A stretch of DNA of 64,000 nt from Minisyncoccota bacterium (lineage in GTDB: Bacteria > Patescibacteriota > Minisyncoccia > Minisyncoccales > Minisyncoccaceae). Under the pieces are notes generated by a model. That model was given only the letters and a program-made list of their open reading frames with translations, was not told the origin of the DNA and ran no database searches. Shown here piece by piece: positions 2,396 through 13,903 of the stretch; within the stretch, counting starts at the first letter, position 1, and each line of letters begins with the position of its first letter. The position numbers and the translations under genes were made by a program. The stretch covers positions 308,414 through 372,413 of the forward strand of contig JBAZIU010000001.1 in assembly GCA_041651685.1 (NCBI GenBank), given 5' to 3'.

Positions 2396-3043
2396 CTACT
2401 TCTTCCTTATCTTCAACCGTATCGGCGGAATGGTATCCTGGTCGAAAATGAGGCGATTTTCCATCAATTCCCTGTATTCGGGATTGTTTGACAGGTCTTT
2501 AATCGGGCTCAATCTTTTGATTAAGACCGGAATTAAGGAAATCAGCATCAATAACCCGGCCATTTCATATCCCTTAAAAGAGAAGGAGAATATGATTCCG
2601 GTCAGGAACGACAAAAGGGTCCCGATTGAAGCAGTCCAGATTATAGTAAATAATAGGCAAGGAATCAAGGAGATGATTAAAACCGTGGGAGAAATAACCA
2701 AGAGTGCTCCGATCAAAGCGGCTAATCCCCTGCCTCCTTTTAATCCCAAAAAGATGGACCAGTTGTGCCCGGCCACGGCCAAGACTCCGCAAAACACTTG
2801 GAACAATTCGGAAAAACCGAAATATCTGGCCAGATAGACGGCAAGAAACCCTTTGCCGACATCAAAGATGAAAGTGAAGATGCCTTGCCACAAACCGACA
2901 TTTTTGAAAACATTGGAACCAGAATTCTTTTTCCAGCCTATTTCCATCAGATTCTTTTTGGTCGTGTATTTGGTAATCAAATATCCGAAAGGAATGGAGC
3001 CTAAAAGATAGGCAAGGATTAAAAGAAGAATGGCTTTAATCAT
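2396..3043 (-). CDS. plsY: Glycerol-3-phosphate acyltransferase PlsY (acyl-phosphate dependent)
   Basis: 215 aa polytopic protein; LLGSIPFGYL, SGSNVFKNVG, AGHNWSIFLGLKGGRGLAA match the PlsY signature blocks. Confidence 0.85.
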   Translation of the reverse strand: MIKAILLLILAYLLGSIPFGYLITKYTTKKNLMEIGWKKNSGSNVFKNVGLWQGIFTFIFDVGKGFLAVYLARYFGFSELFQVFCGVLAVAGHNWSIFLGLKGGRGLAALIGALLVISPTVLIISLIPCLLFTIIWTASIGTLLSFLTGIIFSFSFKGYEMAGLLMLISLIPVLIKRLSPIKDLSNNPEYRELMENRLIFDQDTIPPIRLKIRKK

Positions 3044-3710
3044 TTAAGTATTTCTTATTTTTTATCTTTTCAATTTGATCTAAAACTCTATCCTTGTGAG
3101 CATAGATTATCAGAATAGTTGCAAAAACAGTCGGAAAGAAAAGAGATGGAGCAAAATAATAAATCCATAAAACCGCTACAGCTTCTCCGATCAGTCTTCC
3201 AATTATTTGGTCAGAAACAGCAGCTTTGAATAGTTTGCCAGAAAACTTTCTTCCCATCAAAGCTTCAACGATGATCATAAAGAAAAGAACGATTCCTAAC
3301 CAGCCTAAGAATACTTGCCAGTTTAAGTATAATAATATTCCTAAGAATGTTGCAGCTCCCCTTCCCCCCTTAAATTTAAGAAAGATAGAATAGTTATGTC
3401 CTAAGATTACAAAGAATGTGGCAAGAGTTGTTAGTAGAACGGCGTTTCCAGGAATTAAATTGTTTGCCAAAATTACAGCTAATACACCTTTAGAAGCATC
3501 AAGAAGAAAAACGATAAGAAAGGAAATTATACCCCAGGCTTTTCCTTTTTCATGAGAAACAATTCTTAAAGTATTGAGAGCTCCGGTGTTTTTAGAACCG
3601 AAAGTTCTCATATCTTTATTCAAGAATAATTTAACATATAAAAGAGCAAAAGGAATAGAACCTAAAAGATATGAGATTACAGAAACTAGAATGTGGTTAA
3701 TGTTTAACAT
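3036..3710 (-). CDS. plsY: PlsY paralog (second G3P acyltransferase)
   Basis: 224 aa; LLGSIPFALL, SKNTGALNTLR, LGHNYSIFLKFKGGRGAAT; overlaps the downstream plsY by 8 nt. Confidence 0.8.
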   Translation of the reverse strand: MLNINHILVSVISYLLGSIPFALLYVKLFLNKDMRTFGSKNTGALNTLRIVSHEKGKAWGIISFLIVFLLDASKGVLAVILANNLIPGNAVLLTTLATFFVILGHNYSIFLKFKGGRGAATFLGILLYLNWQVFLGWLGIVLFFMIIVEALMGRKFSGKLFKAAVSDQIIGRLIGEAVAVLWIYYFAPSLFFPTVFATILIIYAHKDRVLDQIEKIKNKKYLND

Positions 3711-5210: not shown

Positions 5211-6092
5211 TTACTCTTCTAATGTTGCACACATTAACGTTCCCGGACCGACATGGGCGCCGATAAACGGCCCGGTCATGCTTATAAAGTCGACTTTGAT
5301 TTTATCTCCGAACCTGTTTAATAAAAGAGACTTCAGTTCGTTCGCTTTTTCTATGTTGTCGGCGTGGGAAATGGCAACCCGGTATTTTTTTCCTTCCTGC
5401 ATAGCTTTTTTGGTAACTTCTTCGAAGTGTTTCAAAAGGGCTTCGGCAATATCCTTGGCATTTATGCTTAAGTTGGCCGGCTTCACTTTCCCGTCTTTCA
5501 TATGCAGTATCGGACGTAATCCGATTTTCTGCATTTGGGCCAAGATAACGGCCAGAGTGTGGCTGATTCTTCCCCCGGCTTCCATCTGATTGGGGTTTTC
5601 GGTCATTCCGAAAAAGTATGTTTTATTAACATAGTTATTAATCGTTTCGACTATTTTTTGTATGTCCTCTCCCCTTTCAGATAGCTCGCAGGCCTTAATC
5701 GCCAAAAGACTTTCCGCCGCATCAATATTGTTTGAATCAATGATGTGAATCCTTTTCTGCATTTCTTCGCTGAACATTTTTCTGGTTTGAATTGCCGCAT
5801 TATATGTTCCCGATATTTTTGAACTGATGGTAATCACAATTGTGTTTTCGCTTTTCGACAGCGCTTCATCGTATGCTTTTTTAAAAGCTCCCATCGGCGG
5901 TTGAGAAGTTTTAGGAGTTGAATTGACTCCTTTCTCAACGGCTTTTCTCATTTTTTGAAAGATATTGTCCCCTTTTAATCCTTCTCCTTCCGGCCAATTA
6001 AGGCTGGGAGTCAAAGCAATTATCCCGTACTTATCAAGAATATCTTTAGTTGTTGAAGCGAAGCTGCAAACGATTACGGTTGCTTTTTGCAT
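5211..6092 (-). CDS. DegV family fatty-acid-binding protein (FakB-like)
   Basis: TSQPPMGAFKKAYDE...ITISSKISGTYNAAIQ. Start trimmed from 6158 to ATG 6092 (MQKATVIV) because the longer ORF overlaps the upstream gene by 60 nt. Confidence 0.8.
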   Translation of the reverse strand: MQKATVIVCSFASTTKDILDKYGIIALTPSLNWPEGEGLKGDNIFQKMRKAVEKGVNSTPKTSQPPMGAFKKAYDEALSKSENTIVITISSKISGTYNAAIQTRKMFSEEMQKRIHIIDSNNIDAAESLLAIKACELSERGEDIQKIVETINNYVNKTYFFGMTENPNQMEAGGRISHTLAVILAQMQKIGLRPILHMKDGKVKPANLSINAKDIAEALLKHFEEVTKKAMQEGKKYRVAISHADNIEKANELKSLLLNRFGDKIKVDFISMTGPFIGAHVGPGTLMCATLEE

Positions 6093-9518: not shown

Positions 9519-10082
9519 TTACCACTTGGCTTTGTGCAACCCTAAGTTATACCCAACTCTATTGCATAAAATATGTATCAAAAATGTCAAGACAAAGAGA
9601 GTTATCCAGAATTCCAAAGAAAGGCGAACTAACGGCTGGATAAAGATAAATGCTCCGATGACGTAATTGGTTTGGTCAAAAGGGATGAAAGCAACTCCGG
9701 GCCTTAATCGCAATCTTCTTTTAAGAAAGGCGAAACCGATATCCCCTGCTATTATTCCGATTGATAACAGTAACCCCAAGGCCCAGCCGTTTATGCTATT
9801 AATGTCCAGCTCGATGGTTTGGTAGAACGAAAGATTATAATAGTTATGAATAAAGATGAATAACGGAGTCAAAAAAGTGCAAAGGATGATTTCACAAATC
9901 ACCCCCCTCCAAGTTTTGTGGCTGCCGAAAACAGGCATTCCGTTTATTGTCCTTCCCCCGTCAATAGGCTTATTCAAACCATTCAAAATATTAAAAGTGT
10001 TGGCTAAAGGAGGAGAAGCGTTGGCTAACAGCGCTGGCATGAAGAAATATATAACCGATAGTATATATAGGTAGTTAATCAC
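9519..10082 (-). CDS. CarS/DUF46-like CTP-dependent CDP-alcohol (CDP-archaeol synthase family) membrane enzyme
   Basis: 187 aa, GTG start; NKPIDGGRTINGMPVFGSHKTWRG, GDIGFAFLKRRLRLRPG, PFDQTNY and the C-terminal YNLGLHKAKW follow the CarS block order as I recall it. Confidence 0.6.
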   Translation of the reverse strand: MINYLYILSVIYFFMPALLANASPPLANTFNILNGLNKPIDGGRTINGMPVFGSHKTWRGVICEIILCTFLTPLFIFIHNYYNLSFYQTIELDINSINGWALGLLLSIGIIAGDIGFAFLKRRLRLRPGVAFIPFDQTNYVIGAFIFIQPLVRLSLEFWITLFVLTFLIHILCNRVGYNLGLHKAKW

Positions 10083-10436
10083 AAAATTTATTGAATGATA
10101 TATTCATTAATTAAATTATATAATAAAAGCCGAATATGTTCAACCGTTTTTATGATTTCCACCCCCTTGGTTTTTAGGATGTCTTTAATATATTATAAGA
10201 ATATAAATAGGTCCGAGTGTCAAGTGGTGGTGTGAATACGATCAGCATCAATTGACCAGATGATATATAGATATAGTTGTTTCGAAAAATTCGGCCAAGG
10301 CGGCATTCTCGAAACACCACTTCCCTATCCATACCCCTTAGTCTTTTGCAATCAAAAGGAATAAGATTAAGAAGTAATCTAATAATAAAGATTGCTAACA
10401 AGATATGTTAGTTCTATGTATCTAGACTAATAATAG

Positions 10437-10507
10437 TCGGGATGCCGGGATTTGAACCCGGATTACAGACTCCCGAAGCCTGCATAATGCCATTATATGA
10501 CATCCCG
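10437..10507 (-). tRNA. tRNA-Pro (anticodon CGG), compact 71 nt
   Basis: Acceptor CGGGATG/CATCCCG, anticodon stem CAGGC/GTCTG with loop TTCGGGA, 4-nt variable loop, T arm CCGGG-TTCAAAT-CCCGG, AT-only D stem. Confidence 0.8.
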
Positions 10508-10512
10508 ATATG

Positions 10513-10528
10513 TGTTTCACGTGAAACA
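10513..10528. promoter_or_regulatory. parS-consensus palindrome TGTTTCACGTGAAACA (site 1)
   Basis: Perfect 16-bp palindrome identical to the ParB/Spo0J parS consensus; begins 5 nt from the tRNA-Pro 5' end. Confidence 0.75.
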
Positions 10529-10539
10529 TTTACTAAACG

Positions 10540-10555
10540 TGTTTCACGCGAAACA
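10540..10555. promoter_or_regulatory. parS-like palindrome, one central mismatch (TGTTTCACGCGAAACA, site 2)
   Basis: 15/16 match to site 1. Confidence 0.6.
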
Positions 10556-10570
10556 TTTTAGAGGTTTTGA

Positions 10571-10664
10571 TTCTGGACACGATTCTGGACATTCTGGACA
10601 CGATTCTGGACAAACTGTGGATATTCTGGACAAATTGGGGACAATCTGGACACGATTCTGGACA
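10571..10664 (+). repeat. Iteron-like array: 6 perfect TTCTGGACA direct repeats plus 2 variants and one TGTGGATAT box
   Basis: Perfect copies start at 10571, 10583, 10592, 10604, 10624, 10656; variants TTGGGGACA (10635) and ATCTGGACA (10644); TGTGGATAT at 10616-10624 (8/9 to the DnaA box TGTGGATAA). Spacing 9-20 nt, all in the same orientation. Confidence 0.8.
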
Positions 10665-10668
10665 CGTG

Positions 10669-10739
10669 TGGACCTGATAAGAATCGGACTTATATTACTA
10701 CCGTGTGAAGGTAGCGTTCTACCATTGAACTACAGGTCC
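10669..10739 (-). tRNA. tRNA-Val (anticodon CAC), compact 71 nt
   Basis: Acceptor GGACCTG/CAGGTCC, D arm GTTC-AATGGTA-GAAC, anticodon stem CTACC/GGTAG with loop TTCACAC, 4-nt variable loop, AT-rich T arm ATAAG-TCCGATT-CTTAT. Confidence 0.8.
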
Positions 10740-10744
10740 GGGAA

Positions 10745-10760
10745 TGTTTCACGTGAAACA
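10745..10760. promoter_or_regulatory. parS-consensus palindrome (site 3)
   Basis: Perfect TGTTTCACGTGAAACA; begins 5 nt from the tRNA-Val 5' end; a half-site (ATATTTCAC) follows near 10767. Confidence 0.75.
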
Positions 10761-10850
10761 TTTAAGATATTTCACAGCGCATACTCTTCCCTACCTTGCT
10801 TCAGACTATGCGATTATATCTCTTTTTAAAATAATAATCAATCGTATGTG

Positions 10851-10921
10851 TGGACCCGATGAGAATTGAACTCATATCTCTGCAATGCGAATGCAGTATT
10901 CTACCGTTGGACTACGGGCCC
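10851..10921 (-). tRNA. tRNA-Ala (anticodon CGC), compact 71 nt
   Basis: Acceptor GGGCCCG/CGGGTCC with the G3:U70 alanine identity pair, anticodon stem CTGCA/TGCAG with loop TTCGCAT, T arm ATGAG-TTCAATT-CTCAT. Confidence 0.8.
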
Positions 10922-10926
10922 GAAGA

Positions 10927-10942
10927 TGTTTCACGTGAAACA
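10927..10942. promoter_or_regulatory. parS-consensus palindrome (site 4)
   Basis: Perfect TGTTTCACGTGAAACA; begins 5 nt from the tRNA-Ala 5' end. Confidence 0.75.
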
Positions 10943-10961
10943 TCTGGTAGGACATCCAAAA

Positions 10962-10977
10962 TGTTTCACGTGAAACA
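10962..10977. promoter_or_regulatory. parS-consensus palindrome (site 5)
   Basis: Perfect TGTTTCACGTGAAACA. Confidence 0.75.
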
Positions 10978-10988
10978 TTTGGAAGGAG

Positions 10989-11004
10989 TGTTTCACGTGA
11001 AACA
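10989..11004. promoter_or_regulatory. parS-consensus palindrome (site 6)
   Basis: Perfect TGTTTCACGTGAAACA, ending 1 nt before the cca stop codon (11006-11008). Confidence 0.75.
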
Positions 11005-11005
11005 C

Positions 11006-12499
11006 TTAGCTGACCCAGTACTTTTCTTTAGTCATTTGATCTTCCTTAATAATAACATTATTTCTCTCTTTCTTGGCTTTTTCAGCTAAATCTTCTAATT
11101 CCGCTTCACTCAGGCCACCCAATTCTAATAGTTTCTTCTTTAAATAGGTTTTAGTGTTGTTTTTAGGGTCCCTTAAGACATCTTCAAATAATACATCTAA
11201 TATCATGCCTACCTTGCGAGAAGGTTTAATATCCAATGTTTTCATTACCTCTTCGCCATTGATTTTAAGCATTTTGACGGAAATAGGGTCTTTAGACACC
11301 TTTTCAATCATATATTTGAAGTGCCTTAGTTTGTATGGTTCGGCTTTGGGGCACCCAGAGCCGATCCTGTCAGCCATCCTTAATTCCAGCAAATCTTCCA
11401 TGTTTTCGGCTCCGACGTTTCTGACCAGTCTTCGAACCGAAGCTTCTCCAACTTCGTCAACATTGTAGTAGAAGAGGTGATATCTGACTAAATTGACTAT
11501 CTTGTCCACATCTTTTTTGGGAAATCTCAATCGATTGAGTATTTTTTCGGCCATTTGAGCCCCAACCACCTCATGGTTATAGAAAGTGGCATCATTGCCT
11601 TCGCCTCTTTTAGTCTTCGGTTTTCCTATATCATGGAGCAGGGCAGCCATGCGAACTTCGAATTTATAAGCTTTATGACTTGCGAAATTGAGGCATTCTA
11701 AATTATGCTTGTAGCAATCATAGATATGATGCTTATTTTGGCCGACCTCATACCCTTCTTCCAATTCCGGTATTATATAGGCTAATAGCCCTTTATTTCG
11801 CAATGATTCTATTCCGGCAGCCGCATTTTCGCTATTAATGATCTTAATCAATTCATCCCGGATTCTTTCTTGGGATATTTTTTTCAATAATGGGGCATTA
11901 TCCTTAATAGCTTGCTTGGTTTTCTCTTCAATTATCCAATCATTACCCAGAGTAGTCTTTAATCTGACCGCCCTCATCATTCGCAGAGCATCTTCTTTAA
12001 ATCTTTCGTTCGGATCGCCCACAGCCCTGAGGATATGGTTCTCAAGGTCGTTTTTTCCATCAAATAAATCGATAATCTGCATCTCCGAGCCGTTTTTTAA
12101 GGATATTGCTATCGAATTGACGGTAAAATCACGCCTTTTCAAGTCTTCTTCGATGGTTTTTGACCAGGAAACCTTGTCCGGATGGCGACTATCAGAGTAA
12201 GTTGCTTCGTTTCTATAGGTAGTTATCTCAATCACGTCGAACTCGTCTTTCTTGATAGGAAAAGCGACTCCGACCGTTCCGAAGTCATTTTCATAGAAAG
12301 TTTTGATTTTCATCTTTTCAAAAATCTTTTGGGTTTCTTCGGGCAGGGCATTGGTGGCCACATCCCAGTCGGCCGGGATGGCGTCCCTCAAGAAATCTCT
12401 GGTGCATCCTCCGACAATATATGCCTCAAATCCGCTTTTTTGCAAAGCGTCTATACAGAATAAGACATTCTTGGGAATTGATTTCAAATCAATTTTCAT
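11006..12499 (-). CDS. cca: CCA-adding tRNA nucleotidyltransferase with HD domain
   Basis: 497 aa; AYIVGGCTRDFLRDAIPADWDVAT (PolyA_pol head), RMMRAVRL, LLHDIGKP (HD). Consistent with most tRNAs here lacking an encoded CCA. Confidence 0.9.
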   Translation of the reverse strand: MKIDLKSIPKNVLFCIDALQKSGFEAYIVGGCTRDFLRDAIPADWDVATNALPEETQKIFEKMKIKTFYENDFGTVGVAFPIKKDEFDVIEITTYRNEATYSDSRHPDKVSWSKTIEEDLKRRDFTVNSIAISLKNGSEMQIIDLFDGKNDLENHILRAVGDPNERFKEDALRMMRAVRLKTTLGNDWIIEEKTKQAIKDNAPLLKKISQERIRDELIKIINSENAAAGIESLRNKGLLAYIIPELEEGYEVGQNKHHIYDCYKHNLECLNFASHKAYKFEVRMAALLHDIGKPKTKRGEGNDATFYNHEVVGAQMAEKILNRLRFPKKDVDKIVNLVRYHLFYYNVDEVGEASVRRLVRNVGAENMEDLLELRMADRIGSGCPKAEPYKLRHFKYMIEKVSKDPISVKMLKINGEEVMKTLDIKPSRKVGMILDVLFEDVLRDPKNNTKTYLKKKLLELGGLSEAELEDLAEKAKKERNNVIIKEDQMTKEKYWVS

Positions 12500-12527
12500 G
12501 TTTCTATAATATAATATATTTCCTGAC

Positions 12528-12555
12528 TTGACAACTGGTTTTCTTTTGCTAAAAT
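12528..12555 (+). promoter_or_regulatory. Sigma70-type promoter candidate for nusA (TTGACA-16-TGcTAAAAT)
   Basis: TTGACA at 12528-12533, extended -10 TGCTAAAAT ending at 12555. Confidence 0.5.
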
Positions 12556-12583
12556 GGAATTAAGAATAAGCAGTTTTTTGATT

Positions 12584-12606
12584 GGTCGGATTGGTCCGAC
12601 CTTTTT
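12584..12606 (+). terminator. Intrinsic-terminator-like hairpin in the nusA leader
   Basis: GGTCGGA-ttgg-TCCGACC followed by TTTTT, located between the promoter candidate and the nusA ATG (12644). Confidence 0.5.
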
Positions 12607-12643
12607 AATAACAATTAAAGATAAATAATAAATAAAAAATAAT

Positions 12644-13903
12644 ATGGATTTTCAATCATTTTTATCAGCCATGACTCAGATTTCCGACGAGAAAGGACTG
12701 TCTCCGGAAAGAGTTTTAGACACGGTTGAGCATGCTTTGGCTTCGGCATACAAGAAAGAATACGGCAAGAAAGGTCAGGTTATCAGAGCCAAGATAAATC
12801 CCAAGACCGGCAAGGTTGATTTTTGGAGAGTCAGAGGCGTTGTTGATGACACCATGGTCTATATCCCGGAAAAAGTTGAAGTAGAAGGCGAAGAGGGGAC
12901 AGAACCAACAGAAGAAATCAAGGTTAAGGTTAAAGACAGTTACCGACCGACTGAAGCCGAATTAAACACTGAAGAAATTGAAAAAGAAGGGGAGGCTGCC
13001 GAGAGAAGAGTCAGATACAACCCGGAAAAGCATATGTTGATAGAAGAGGTTGAAGAAGAGGGATTGAAATTGAAAGCAGGCGAAGAGGAAGTCGTTACTT
13101 TGGAAAGCAGGGATGATTTTGGCAGAATTGCCGCACAAACAGCCAAACAAGTGGTTCTTCAGAAGATCAGGGAGGCTGAAAAAGAAACCGTTTTGGCCGA
13201 ATACAAGTCAAAAGAAGGAGAAATCGTCTCGGGAATCGTTCAAAGAATCGAAGGTTCCAACATTTACTTCGATATCGGCAAATCATTGGGAGTTTTGCCC
13301 AAAGAAGAGCAAATCAGAGGGGAGTTTTATAAGGAAGGACAGAGATTAAAATTGTATGTTTTACGTGTTGATACAACACCCAAGGGACCGATTATTCTCT
13401 TGTCCAGAAGCTATCCCAAGCTTATCTCCAAGCTATTCGAATTGGAAGTTCCGGAAATATCCGGCGAACAGGTAGAAATCAAAGCCATTGCCAGAGAGGC
13501 CGGGTCAAGAACCAAGATTGCCGTTGAATCATCAGCCGAAGGGGTTGATCCGATTGGAGCCATGGTCGGGCAGAGAGGAGTTAGGGTGGCCGCGGTCATG
13601 TCCGAACTGGGAGGAGAAAAGATTGATATTATCGAATATCATCCCGAACCGACCAAGTTCATTGCCAATGCTTTGTCTCCGGCTAAAATCATCGATGTTC
13701 TACCTCAAACCAAAAATACCGCCATCGTTGTTGTTCCCAAGGACCAGCTGTCTTTAGCCATCGGCAAAGACGGACAGAACGTCAGATTGGCTGCTAAATT
13801 AACCGGCTGGAAGATTGATGTTAAGAGCGAAGACCAGATTAATGAAATCAAAAAAGAGGAAGAGGAGTTGCATGTCGACGAAGAAGAATCAACTGAAAAA
13901 TAA
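12644..13903 (+). CDS. nusA: Transcription termination/antitermination factor NusA (with an acidic insertion)
   Basis: 419 aa; [23 protein letters not shown]1 and two KH blocks ([47 protein letters not shown]). Confidence 0.95.

Follow-up and report, generated by a model that had tools for sequence, protein, structure and literature searches.

The 64,000-nucleotide stretch of Minisyncoccota DNA analyzed here (the window; C1:308414-372413 of G000, a 709-kb, 15-contig assembly with ~40% GC) carries ten short direct repeats, all on one face of the DNA helix, between a tRNA-Val gene and a pair of parS sites next to a tRNA-Pro gene. Another array of the same 9-mer fills the gap between a gene for a winged-helix protein and a gene for an extracytoplasmic function (ECF) sigma factor on contig C8, and the repeat word changes in step at the two loci from lineage to lineage. 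We hold it to be rather probable that the window array is a cooperative platform, on one helix face, for a lineage-specific protein other than DnaA, the C8 winged-helix regulator being the best candidate. What is new here is the additional array copy, unlinked to the regulator-array-sigma cassette and located within a parS cluster at a strand switch, whose word co-varies with that of the cassette array; winged-helix operator arrays of Paceibacterota were undescribed in the literature searched. The public sequencing runs that carry this sequence are landfill and groundwater DNA metagenomes. The two arrays comprise the following features.

10571..10674, + strand: phased repeat array, 10 sites with a GGA(C/T)A core, from sequence reading and period fit.
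10614..10622, + strand: TGTGGATAT, a DnaA-box-like unit at a fixed position within the array, filling a 20-nt gap.
Contig C8, 6655-6801: second array, 13-14 sites, period 10.5 bp, phase coherence R = 0.88.

In the window, six perfect copies of TTCTGGACA start at 10571, 10583, 10592, 10604, 10624 and 10656, and the degenerate units are TTGGGGACA at 10635, ATCTGGACA at 10644, CTGTGGATA and TGTGGAC. The first-pass annotation of this DNA had counted six perfect and two degenerate copies on the same strand, which our reading of the sequence bears out, and its spacings of 12, 9, 12, 20, 11, 9 and 12 nt were reproduced exactly. The DnaA-box-like element that it saw interrupting the array is TGTGGATAT at 10614-10622, within one mismatch of the consensus, and most relatives have TGTGGACAT at this inner position. 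The terminal TGTGGAC was located at 10666-10672; it is in phase with the other sites and forms the 3' end of tRNA-Val, so that the last array unit overlaps the tRNA. Measured between the GGA cores, the spacings of the ten sites are 12, 9, 12, 11, 9, 11, 9, 12 and 10, which average 10.56. A period of 10.5 bp fits them best (phase coherence R = 0.90), and therefore all sites lie on one helix face; the array has the layout of the parC/tubC type, with at least seven short direct repeats at helical phasing. When the word was counted genome-wide, as had been suggested in the first-pass annotation, a single further cluster was found, on contig C8, besides ~10 exact 9-mers scattered over the whole 709-kb genome. 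Phased GGACA triples occur at the window and C8 loci only, and a reversed-word control gave none at either array locus, its sole matches lying near the C8 end at 9891 and 9897. The array is not a product of chance.

The C8 array, the sole other cluster of the 9-mer in the genome, mixes TTCTGGACA with three TGTGGACAA units. It starts ~10 bp past the stop codon of the winged-helix protein gene and ends ~25 bp before the ATG of the ECF sigma-factor gene. The window array abuts no regulator gene and is unlinked to this cassette, the two being 116 kb apart in the relative G006. A strong TTGACT-17-TATAAT promoter, conserved in six genera (L001 5946-5982 and its orthologues), ends 7-8 nt before the regulator ATG, which implies a leaderless regulator mRNA. 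From the array to the sigma gene there is no promoter-like site except for matches made by the repeats themselves; since the sigma gene has no recognizable promoter of its own, its expression by read-through is probable, so that the array seems to be intra-operonic. In the relative G022 (L095, G022:C1 1000-1050), a long GC-rich hairpin, GCTCCGCCATCCGCC...GGCGGATGGCGGAGGC, fills the regulator-sigma gap and no array is present there, which would fit with the two genes needing a barrier of some kind between them. The ECF sigma gene itself contains another four to five copies of the word (C8 7076-7138), one of which is inverted; they encode the linker between sigma regions 2 and 4 (NLDNLDTVLDK...AGQAVQN). 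These internal copies are found in the clade of genera g1, g2, g7 and g3 only, besides two in G245 of another family; they match the word variant of their lineage and use less common codons (CTG, GAC). The pattern, confounded as it is by phylogeny, hints that they may serve as an internal operator.

The conservation of the word was examined by searching for TCTGGACA pairs in 40 relatives, with the reversed word as a control that gave zero matches. The first-pass annotation had allowed that the repeat might be missing from close relatives; this is not the case, and the repeat is strongly conserved, being present in all nine remaining genomes of the genus as well as in four that belong to genera g2, g7 and g8; most of these have two loci each, and both arrays recur in 10/10 genomes of the genus. 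One class of locus invariably shows the order tRNA-Ala(cgc), parS, tRNA-Val(cac), array, parS, tRNA-Pro(cgg), and the other always lies in front of the sigma gene. The parS-side arrays keep an inner order across genera g1, g2, g7 and g8, consisting of a TTCTGGACA block, aaCTGTGGA(C/T)A, TTCTGGACA, aaTTGGGGACA and two units running into tRNA-Val, which indicates purifying selection; the number of units varies by species from about 5 to 10. In the complete 655-kb genome G006, parS is found at 187.2-187.5 kb only, and phased GGACA triples are found only at 71.3 kb (the sigma locus) and at 187.4 kb, with no match to the reversed control. Orthologues of the winged-helix gene are present in 8/9 genera of the family, and in most of these genera the space from the winged-helix gene to the sigma gene is taken up by an array whose word differs by lineage. 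Cassettes with GGACA-core arrays also occur in other families of the order, in G075, G245 and G035, as well as in G118 and G226, where the array is inverted.

The word varies by lineage around a GG(A/C)CA core (TCTGGACA, TGCGGACA, TCCGGCCA and AGTGGACA), and what stays invariant is this core together with a 12/9 or 10/12 spacing. On the sigma side, the word is TTCTGGACA/ATGTGGACA in g1, g2 and g7, with ACTTGGACA in some g2 genomes; it is ATCCGGCCA, ATGCGGACA and ATGTGGCCA in g3, and ATGCGGACA, ATCCGGACA and ACGCGGACA in g9. The two loci share their variant of the word, as follows: First, g1 has TTCTGGACA at both loci. Second, the word of G022 is TAGTGGACA/TTGTGGACA both at tRNA-Pro and in a large array found downstream of the sigma gene, at a distance of 500 bp. 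Third, G054 has TGCGGACA/TGTGGCCA at its tRNA locus, as do the sigma-upstream arrays of other g3 genomes. At last, G017 has CGCGGACA/TGCGGACA both before the sigma gene and beside parS, just downstream of the gene for the CCA enzyme. Two unlinked loci that are altered in step point to a shared trans-acting reader. Among the three functions put forward in the first-pass annotation, operator sites for an unknown regulator are thereby the best supported, by the two-locus co-variation and by the linkage to the cassette; the array may also act, as proposed there, on the tRNA transcript that runs through it. A different repeat was seen at the tRNA-Pro/Ala locus of g4 (L050/L061), where the perfect palindrome TCTGGCCAGA occurs many times, alternating with the DnaA boxes TTGTCCACA and TTATCCACA between tRNA-Pro and tRNA-Ala and with more copies near parS; the g4 genomes bearing these palindromes have no array before the sigma gene.

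The candidate regulator is a protein of 221 aa encoded at C8 5982-6647, annotated in public records as hypothetical or as DeoR/ArsR-like. An AlphaFold2 model built with 15 orthologues has a confidently predicted bundle of four helices at residues 3-112, then a disordered linker rich in Lys and Glu (112-149), and a winged helix at 159-217. In Foldseek searches the N-terminal bundle matched Xcc0516 (2gsc), BT_0352 (2rld) and the diversity-generating retroelement protein Avd (4dwl, 8ube), and the C-terminal winged helix matched DsrD, ArsR/SmtB, MecI/BlaI, Fur, TubR and AspA. Avd is pentameric, and five chains are deposited in each of 2gsc and 2rld; the regulator is possibly a pentamer as well, judging from these solved relatives of its fold. 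The winged helices of one such oligomer would sit on successive GGACA-core sites, one helical turn apart, and arrays of 10 and of 13-15 sites would hold two or three pentamers. Coated with the protein, the C8 stretch would block or tune RNA polymerase passing from the regulator gene into the sigma gene, and limited read-through into the latter would give feedback control. The same protein would then have a further, distant target in the window array, which separates tRNA-Val from the parS pair and tRNA-Pro; there it could act as a roadblock or insulator against transcription or sliding ParB; alternatively, it could be an origin-proximal decoy that titrates the regulator. Here we assume that tRNA-Val, the array and tRNA-Pro lie on one transcript.

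Several observations weigh against the operator-platform reading. The candidate binder is tentatively assigned from gene adjacency only, and its recognition-helix residues (RTIRR vs RSIRR) do not track the word cleanly and are confounded by phylogeny. Genomes of g4 and some of g6 have the winged-helix and sigma genes with no array between them, and the parS-side array is absent from most g3 genomes. The orientation of the array to the flanking genes varies, being antisense to the tRNAs in g1, sense in G054 and inverted in G118 and G226, and a promoter candidate upstream of tRNA-Val is not conserved in relatives. Finally, the invariant core GGACA is also the center of the TTGTCCACA-type DnaA box, and DnaA may also bind, because true DnaA boxes are mixed into some arrays.

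The surroundings of the window array comprise the following features.

10436..10507, - strand: tRNA-Pro(cgg), downstream of the array on the transcribed strand.
10513..10555: two parS palindromes, TGTTTCACGTGAAACA and a one-mismatch copy, starting at 10513 and 10540; they are separated by 15 bp from the array and, on the upstream side of tRNA-Pro, by 5 nt from its 5' end.
10668..10739, - strand: tRNA-Val(cac), whose 3' end abuts the last array unit and overlaps with it.
10745..11004: four more parS sites, interspersed among tRNA-Val and tRNA-Ala and starting at 10745, 10927, 10962 and 10989.
10850..10921, - strand: tRNA-Ala(cgc), first in a conserved order that continues with tRNA-Val, the array, parS and tRNA-Pro.
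12500..12643: intergenic region from which the CCA-enzyme gene (-) and nusA (+) diverge; genes switch strand here, and cumulative GC skew reaches its minimum (window 12535).

The array was described in the first-pass annotation as lying between parS sites and a tRNA, and this setting is correct, the array being flanked by the parS sites at 10513 and 10540 and, opposite to them, by tRNA-Val(cac). The six clustered parS are the only near-consensus sites of the genome at up to one mismatch; at up to two mismatches, one extra weak match appears elsewhere on C1. One ParB gene is located at a distance of 124 kb. A perfect parS ends 5 nt 5' of each C34 tRNA gene (Pro-cgg, Val-cac and Ala-cgc), with the gaps at 10508-10512, 10740-10744 and 10922-10926 of the window, and this arrangement is kept in relatives. 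In the g2 relative G024 (L022, G024:C1 6148-7035), 15 parS adjoin its TTCTGGACA array, the first 13 of them in tandem with a period of 56-57 bp. Genes nearby in the window are of bacterial type and encode the CCA-adding enzyme, NusA, trigger factor, ClpP and a CarS-like protein; judging from the source names of homologues, the genome belongs to Paceibacterota, a lineage of the candidate phyla radiation. An open reading frame of 75 aa at 10174-10401 was considered as a local binder and rejected; it has no Pfam match and no tblastn match in 16 related loci, and is probably not a gene.

The position of the array close to the skew minimum brings in DnaA, and two of the functions proposed in the first-pass annotation, a cluster of DnaA boxes and initiator-binding iterons, belong to this question. 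A DnaA-assembly region could be part of the origin or a DnaA-titrating cluster of the datA or B. subtilis DnaA-box cluster (DBC) type, in which low-affinity TCTGGACA sites would be nucleated by the central TGTGGA(T/C)AT box; we regard it as quite unlikely. The cumulative GC-skew minimum (C1, window 12535) and the minus-to-plus gene switch lie 1.9 kb from the array, those of G006 lie 1.5 kb from its array, and for this reason some origin or segregation role has a residual likelihood; both distances would speak for DnaA. The E. coli oriC has arrayed low-affinity DnaA sites in the same orientation and with an ~11-bp layout, which the repeats resemble. Also in favor of DnaA, the box-like unit TGTGGATAT stands at a conserved position, and it is one of four units within one mismatch of TTGTCCACA, the others being three flank-dependent readings (TCTGGACAA twice and TGGGGACAA). 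Canonical TTATCCACA, TTGTCCACA or TGTGGATAA boxes are present at the homologous locus in g4 and g9, which raises the residual chance of an origin.

What speaks against DnaA is, in the first place, the word itself. The main unit TTCTGGACA matches the DnaA box at 6/9 positions, the same count as in the first-pass annotation, and so lies outside one mismatch of TTATCCACA or TTGTCCACA; the conserved 9-mer is moreover offset one base 5' of the DnaA box and has a free last position. The positions most strictly read by DnaA are G2, T3 and A6 of TGTGGATAA. The word varies at these positions between lineages, whereas the contact motifs of DnaA domain IV (RKKEF..PRQ.AM and GGKDHTTVIHA) are identical in g1, g3, g4 and g6, and a larger array of the same word precedes the sigma-factor gene. 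In the second place, a complete module of boxes, trio and AT-rich stretch is located elsewhere. The genes dnaA and dnaN lie 43 kb from the array (C1:274108-276825), and the gap between them contains two to four TTATCCACA or TTGTCCACA boxes, a run TAATAGTAATAATAA adjoining TTATCCACA, and an AT-rich 40-mer (95% AT), in a layout conserved in every genus examined. We take TAATAGTAATAATAA to be a DnaA-trio-like element, a type of element reportedly described by Richardson et al. in 2016. No trio run was found in the window at 10000-12700, and the AT-rich 40-mer nearest the array (92.5% AT) is ~480 bp off, beyond tRNA-Pro. The dnaA region was to be checked for the repeat according to the first-pass annotation, and TTCTGGACA is absent from the dnaA-dnaN gap. 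The distance of dnaA from the tRNA-Pro/parS locus is 30-52 kb in 17/17 genomes checked, and the dnaA-parS arrangement is therefore stable. Three canonical DnaA boxes (TTGTCCACG and two TTATCCACA) were also seen away from dnaA, at C2:9548-9685 of G000.

The strand asymmetry of the interval between dnaA and the parS/tRNA locus points in both directions. GC skew is flat over these 45-55 kb (G000 C1:265000-320000; G006 186-240 kb). On the chromosome arms, third-position skew is +0.03 to +0.23 for leading-strand genes and -0.14 to -0.25 for lagging-strand genes, and the values within the interval are intermediate. Third-position GC skew there has no direction in G000 and a slight dnaA-side lean in G006, and third-position AT skew weakly favors forks from the dnaA side; a skew that is neutral or slightly dnaA-sided speaks against a DnaA-assembly region at the array. 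Gene orientation in the interval, with 24 minus vs 10 plus genes in G000, favors forks from the parS side. Among the top-ranked papers on oriC and DnaA boxes of the candidate phyla radiation (CPR), nothing on this subject was found. The first-pass annotation had named, as what would count against an initiator-binding array, a distant skew minimum together with a distant dnaA/dnaN having its own boxes and lacking the motif. The latter part holds, as dnaA/dnaN is 43 kb away with its own boxes and without TTCTGGACA, but the skew minimum is 1.9 kb off (1.5 kb in G006). A DnaA-box cluster is unlikely since the word varies while the DnaA contact motifs are identical and since the match is only 6/9. 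Initiator-binding iterons are likewise unlikely, with no Rep-type gene linked and no adjoining origin module, and the candidate binder has a single winged helix and a four-helix bundle, not the two-winged-helix (WH1-WH2) architecture of Rep. The window array is most likely neither origin iterons nor DnaA boxes, and we give an origin-related function of the locus a small chance.

Unlikely, in our estimate, is also an extension of the operator-platform reading in which the parS-embedded array would be part of an origin/segregation region and would couple replication or segregation status to ECF sigma expression. The regulator, possibly pentameric, would coat the ten phased sites, and the coupling might arise by dosage-dependent titration once a second copy of the origin-proximal array has been made, a mechanism proposed for datA or crtS; another way would be for the regulator to gate ParB spreading or DnaA access. 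In its extreme version, forks would start at the array locus, not at dnaA-dnaN, and the repeats would be chromosomal iterons.

The proximity to parS suggests another function, namely an accessory centromere or partition element, to which we assign a slim chance. A repeat-binding protein would coat it and thereby set the form or the limits of the ParB-parS complex, in analogy to the parC/ParR, tubC/TubR or omega-protein heptad arrays, which are centromere and operator at once on plasmids. Every parS-side array examined lies ~15-120 bp from parS (13 loci in g1, g2, g7 and g8, plus G017), and repeats of the variant proper to each genome also flank parS in G022 and g4. Ten sites with an 11-bp period match parC and tubC, and TubR and AspA are among the Foldseek matches of the winged helix; the similarity to these two is, however, no better than that to many other winged-helix repressors. 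Neither array is adjoined by a partition NTPase or a ParM- or TubZ-type gene, and parS is not close to the larger array, which is also the more widely conserved one; both points argue against a centromere.

The array could also be read by another binder, either the ECF sigma factor, to which each GGACA would be one in a series of -35-like boxes, or a regulator encoded elsewhere, for example an OmpR/PhoB-type response regulator; this appears very unlikely to us. The sigma gene is linked to the array as tightly as the winged-helix gene is, TGGACA is a 5/6 match to TTGACA, and the word copies in the sigma linker follow the lineage variant. Yet the boxes are not followed by a matching -10 element, the tRNA locus has no array-strand gene to drive, and no response-regulator gene adjoins either array; to our knowledge, free sigma factors rarely bind DNA in arrays, which further speaks against the ECF factor. 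A functionless, slippage-prone minisatellite or an array that acts as RNA is scarcely credible, for although the unit number ranges from ~5 to 10 between species and assembly unitigs break at the repeats, four genera share both the word and the inner order, the core is kept across an order, helical phasing is maintained, and the orientation of the array relative to transcription differs between loci. Two specific RNA candidates were rejected: an RNA element, with folding z-scores of -1.4 and -0.1 and no Rfam match, and a CsrA sponge, with no CsrA gene found.

CPR bacteria (Patescibacteria) have very few regulators, and their control of transcription, replication and segregation is hardly understood. 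The analysis yields a readable cis-code, the helically phased GGACA-core arrays, and a concrete candidate reader of undescribed architecture, conserved across an order and with two targets per genome, an apparently important alternative sigma gene and the only parS cluster of the chromosome. This raises the questions of whether the regulator represents a new oligomeric transcription-factor architecture, how its specificity co-evolves with its sites, and whether sigma-factor expression is linked to the chromosome cycle in minimal cells. In addition, automated origin finders would probably mis-call the array locus as oriC.

In the literature, the 9-mer gave only primer matches. Arrays of GGGACAGACCC in G032 were considered as the same phenomenon and rejected as probably different, being dispersed repeats of which two flank an IS200/Y1-transposase-like gene. 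These tandem arrays of 11-bp units (GGGACAGACCC/GGGACAGTCCA) are intergenic, at 3017-3065, 5746-5794, 12697-12734 and 13438-13486 of G032:C12 (L150, another family), and may be of the kind of repetitive extragenic palindromes and their associated transposases (REP/RAYT), unrelated to the GGACA arrays. G000 itself has further tandem repeats at C5:351-551 (TGGCTCTGG-like) and C5:15251-17050 (TAGAAATAG-like units).

The pho and tor boxes of the OmpR/PhoB family and the MraZ operator are tandem direct repeats with a 10-11-bp period, and they resemble the arrays described here in that a winged-helix or oligomeric protein reads one DNA face. They differ in their regulators, as no receiver-domain regulator or mraZ gene is linked here; unlike pho/tor boxes, the present arrays are longer (10-15 units), and the one at the sigma locus is intra-operon and not at a -35 position. 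Plasmid iterons with their Rep proteins (RepA, RepE, pi) share the 21-bp super-unit (12 + 9, two helical turns) and the presence of one array in an origin-proximal region and one beside the putative binder gene, an arrangement reminiscent of origin iterons and their autoregulatory operator. In contrast to these, the units are 9-mers and not 17-22-mers, and there is neither a two-winged-helix Rep protein nor an adjoining module of DnaA boxes and AT-rich DNA. DnaA-box clusters (oriC, datA, B. subtilis DBCs) are similar in having same-orientation 9-mers at ~10.5-11 bp, a GGACA core, one or two embedded box-like units and, here, a position by the skew minimum that may be origin-proximal. The arrays depart from them in their variable word with an invariant DnaA, in lacking an adjoining trio, in the separate origin module 43 kb off, and in the use of the same word for an operator-like array at a sigma-factor gene.

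The R1 parC/ParR, pBtoxis tubC/TubR and pSM19035 omega heptad systems likewise have at least 7-10 short direct repeats spaced by about one helical turn and cooperatively coated by a small protein, a coating that we propose for the present arrays; there too, the array abuts the operon of its binder, and several loci are possible. In contrast to these systems, the arrays described here are chromosomal, no ParM, TubZ or ParA-type motor gene adjoins them, and the candidate binder has an Avd-like bundle and is not a ribbon-helix-helix protein or a TubR dimer. The gene downstream of the cassette array codes for an ECF sigma factor, and the window copy has classical ParB parS sites around it.

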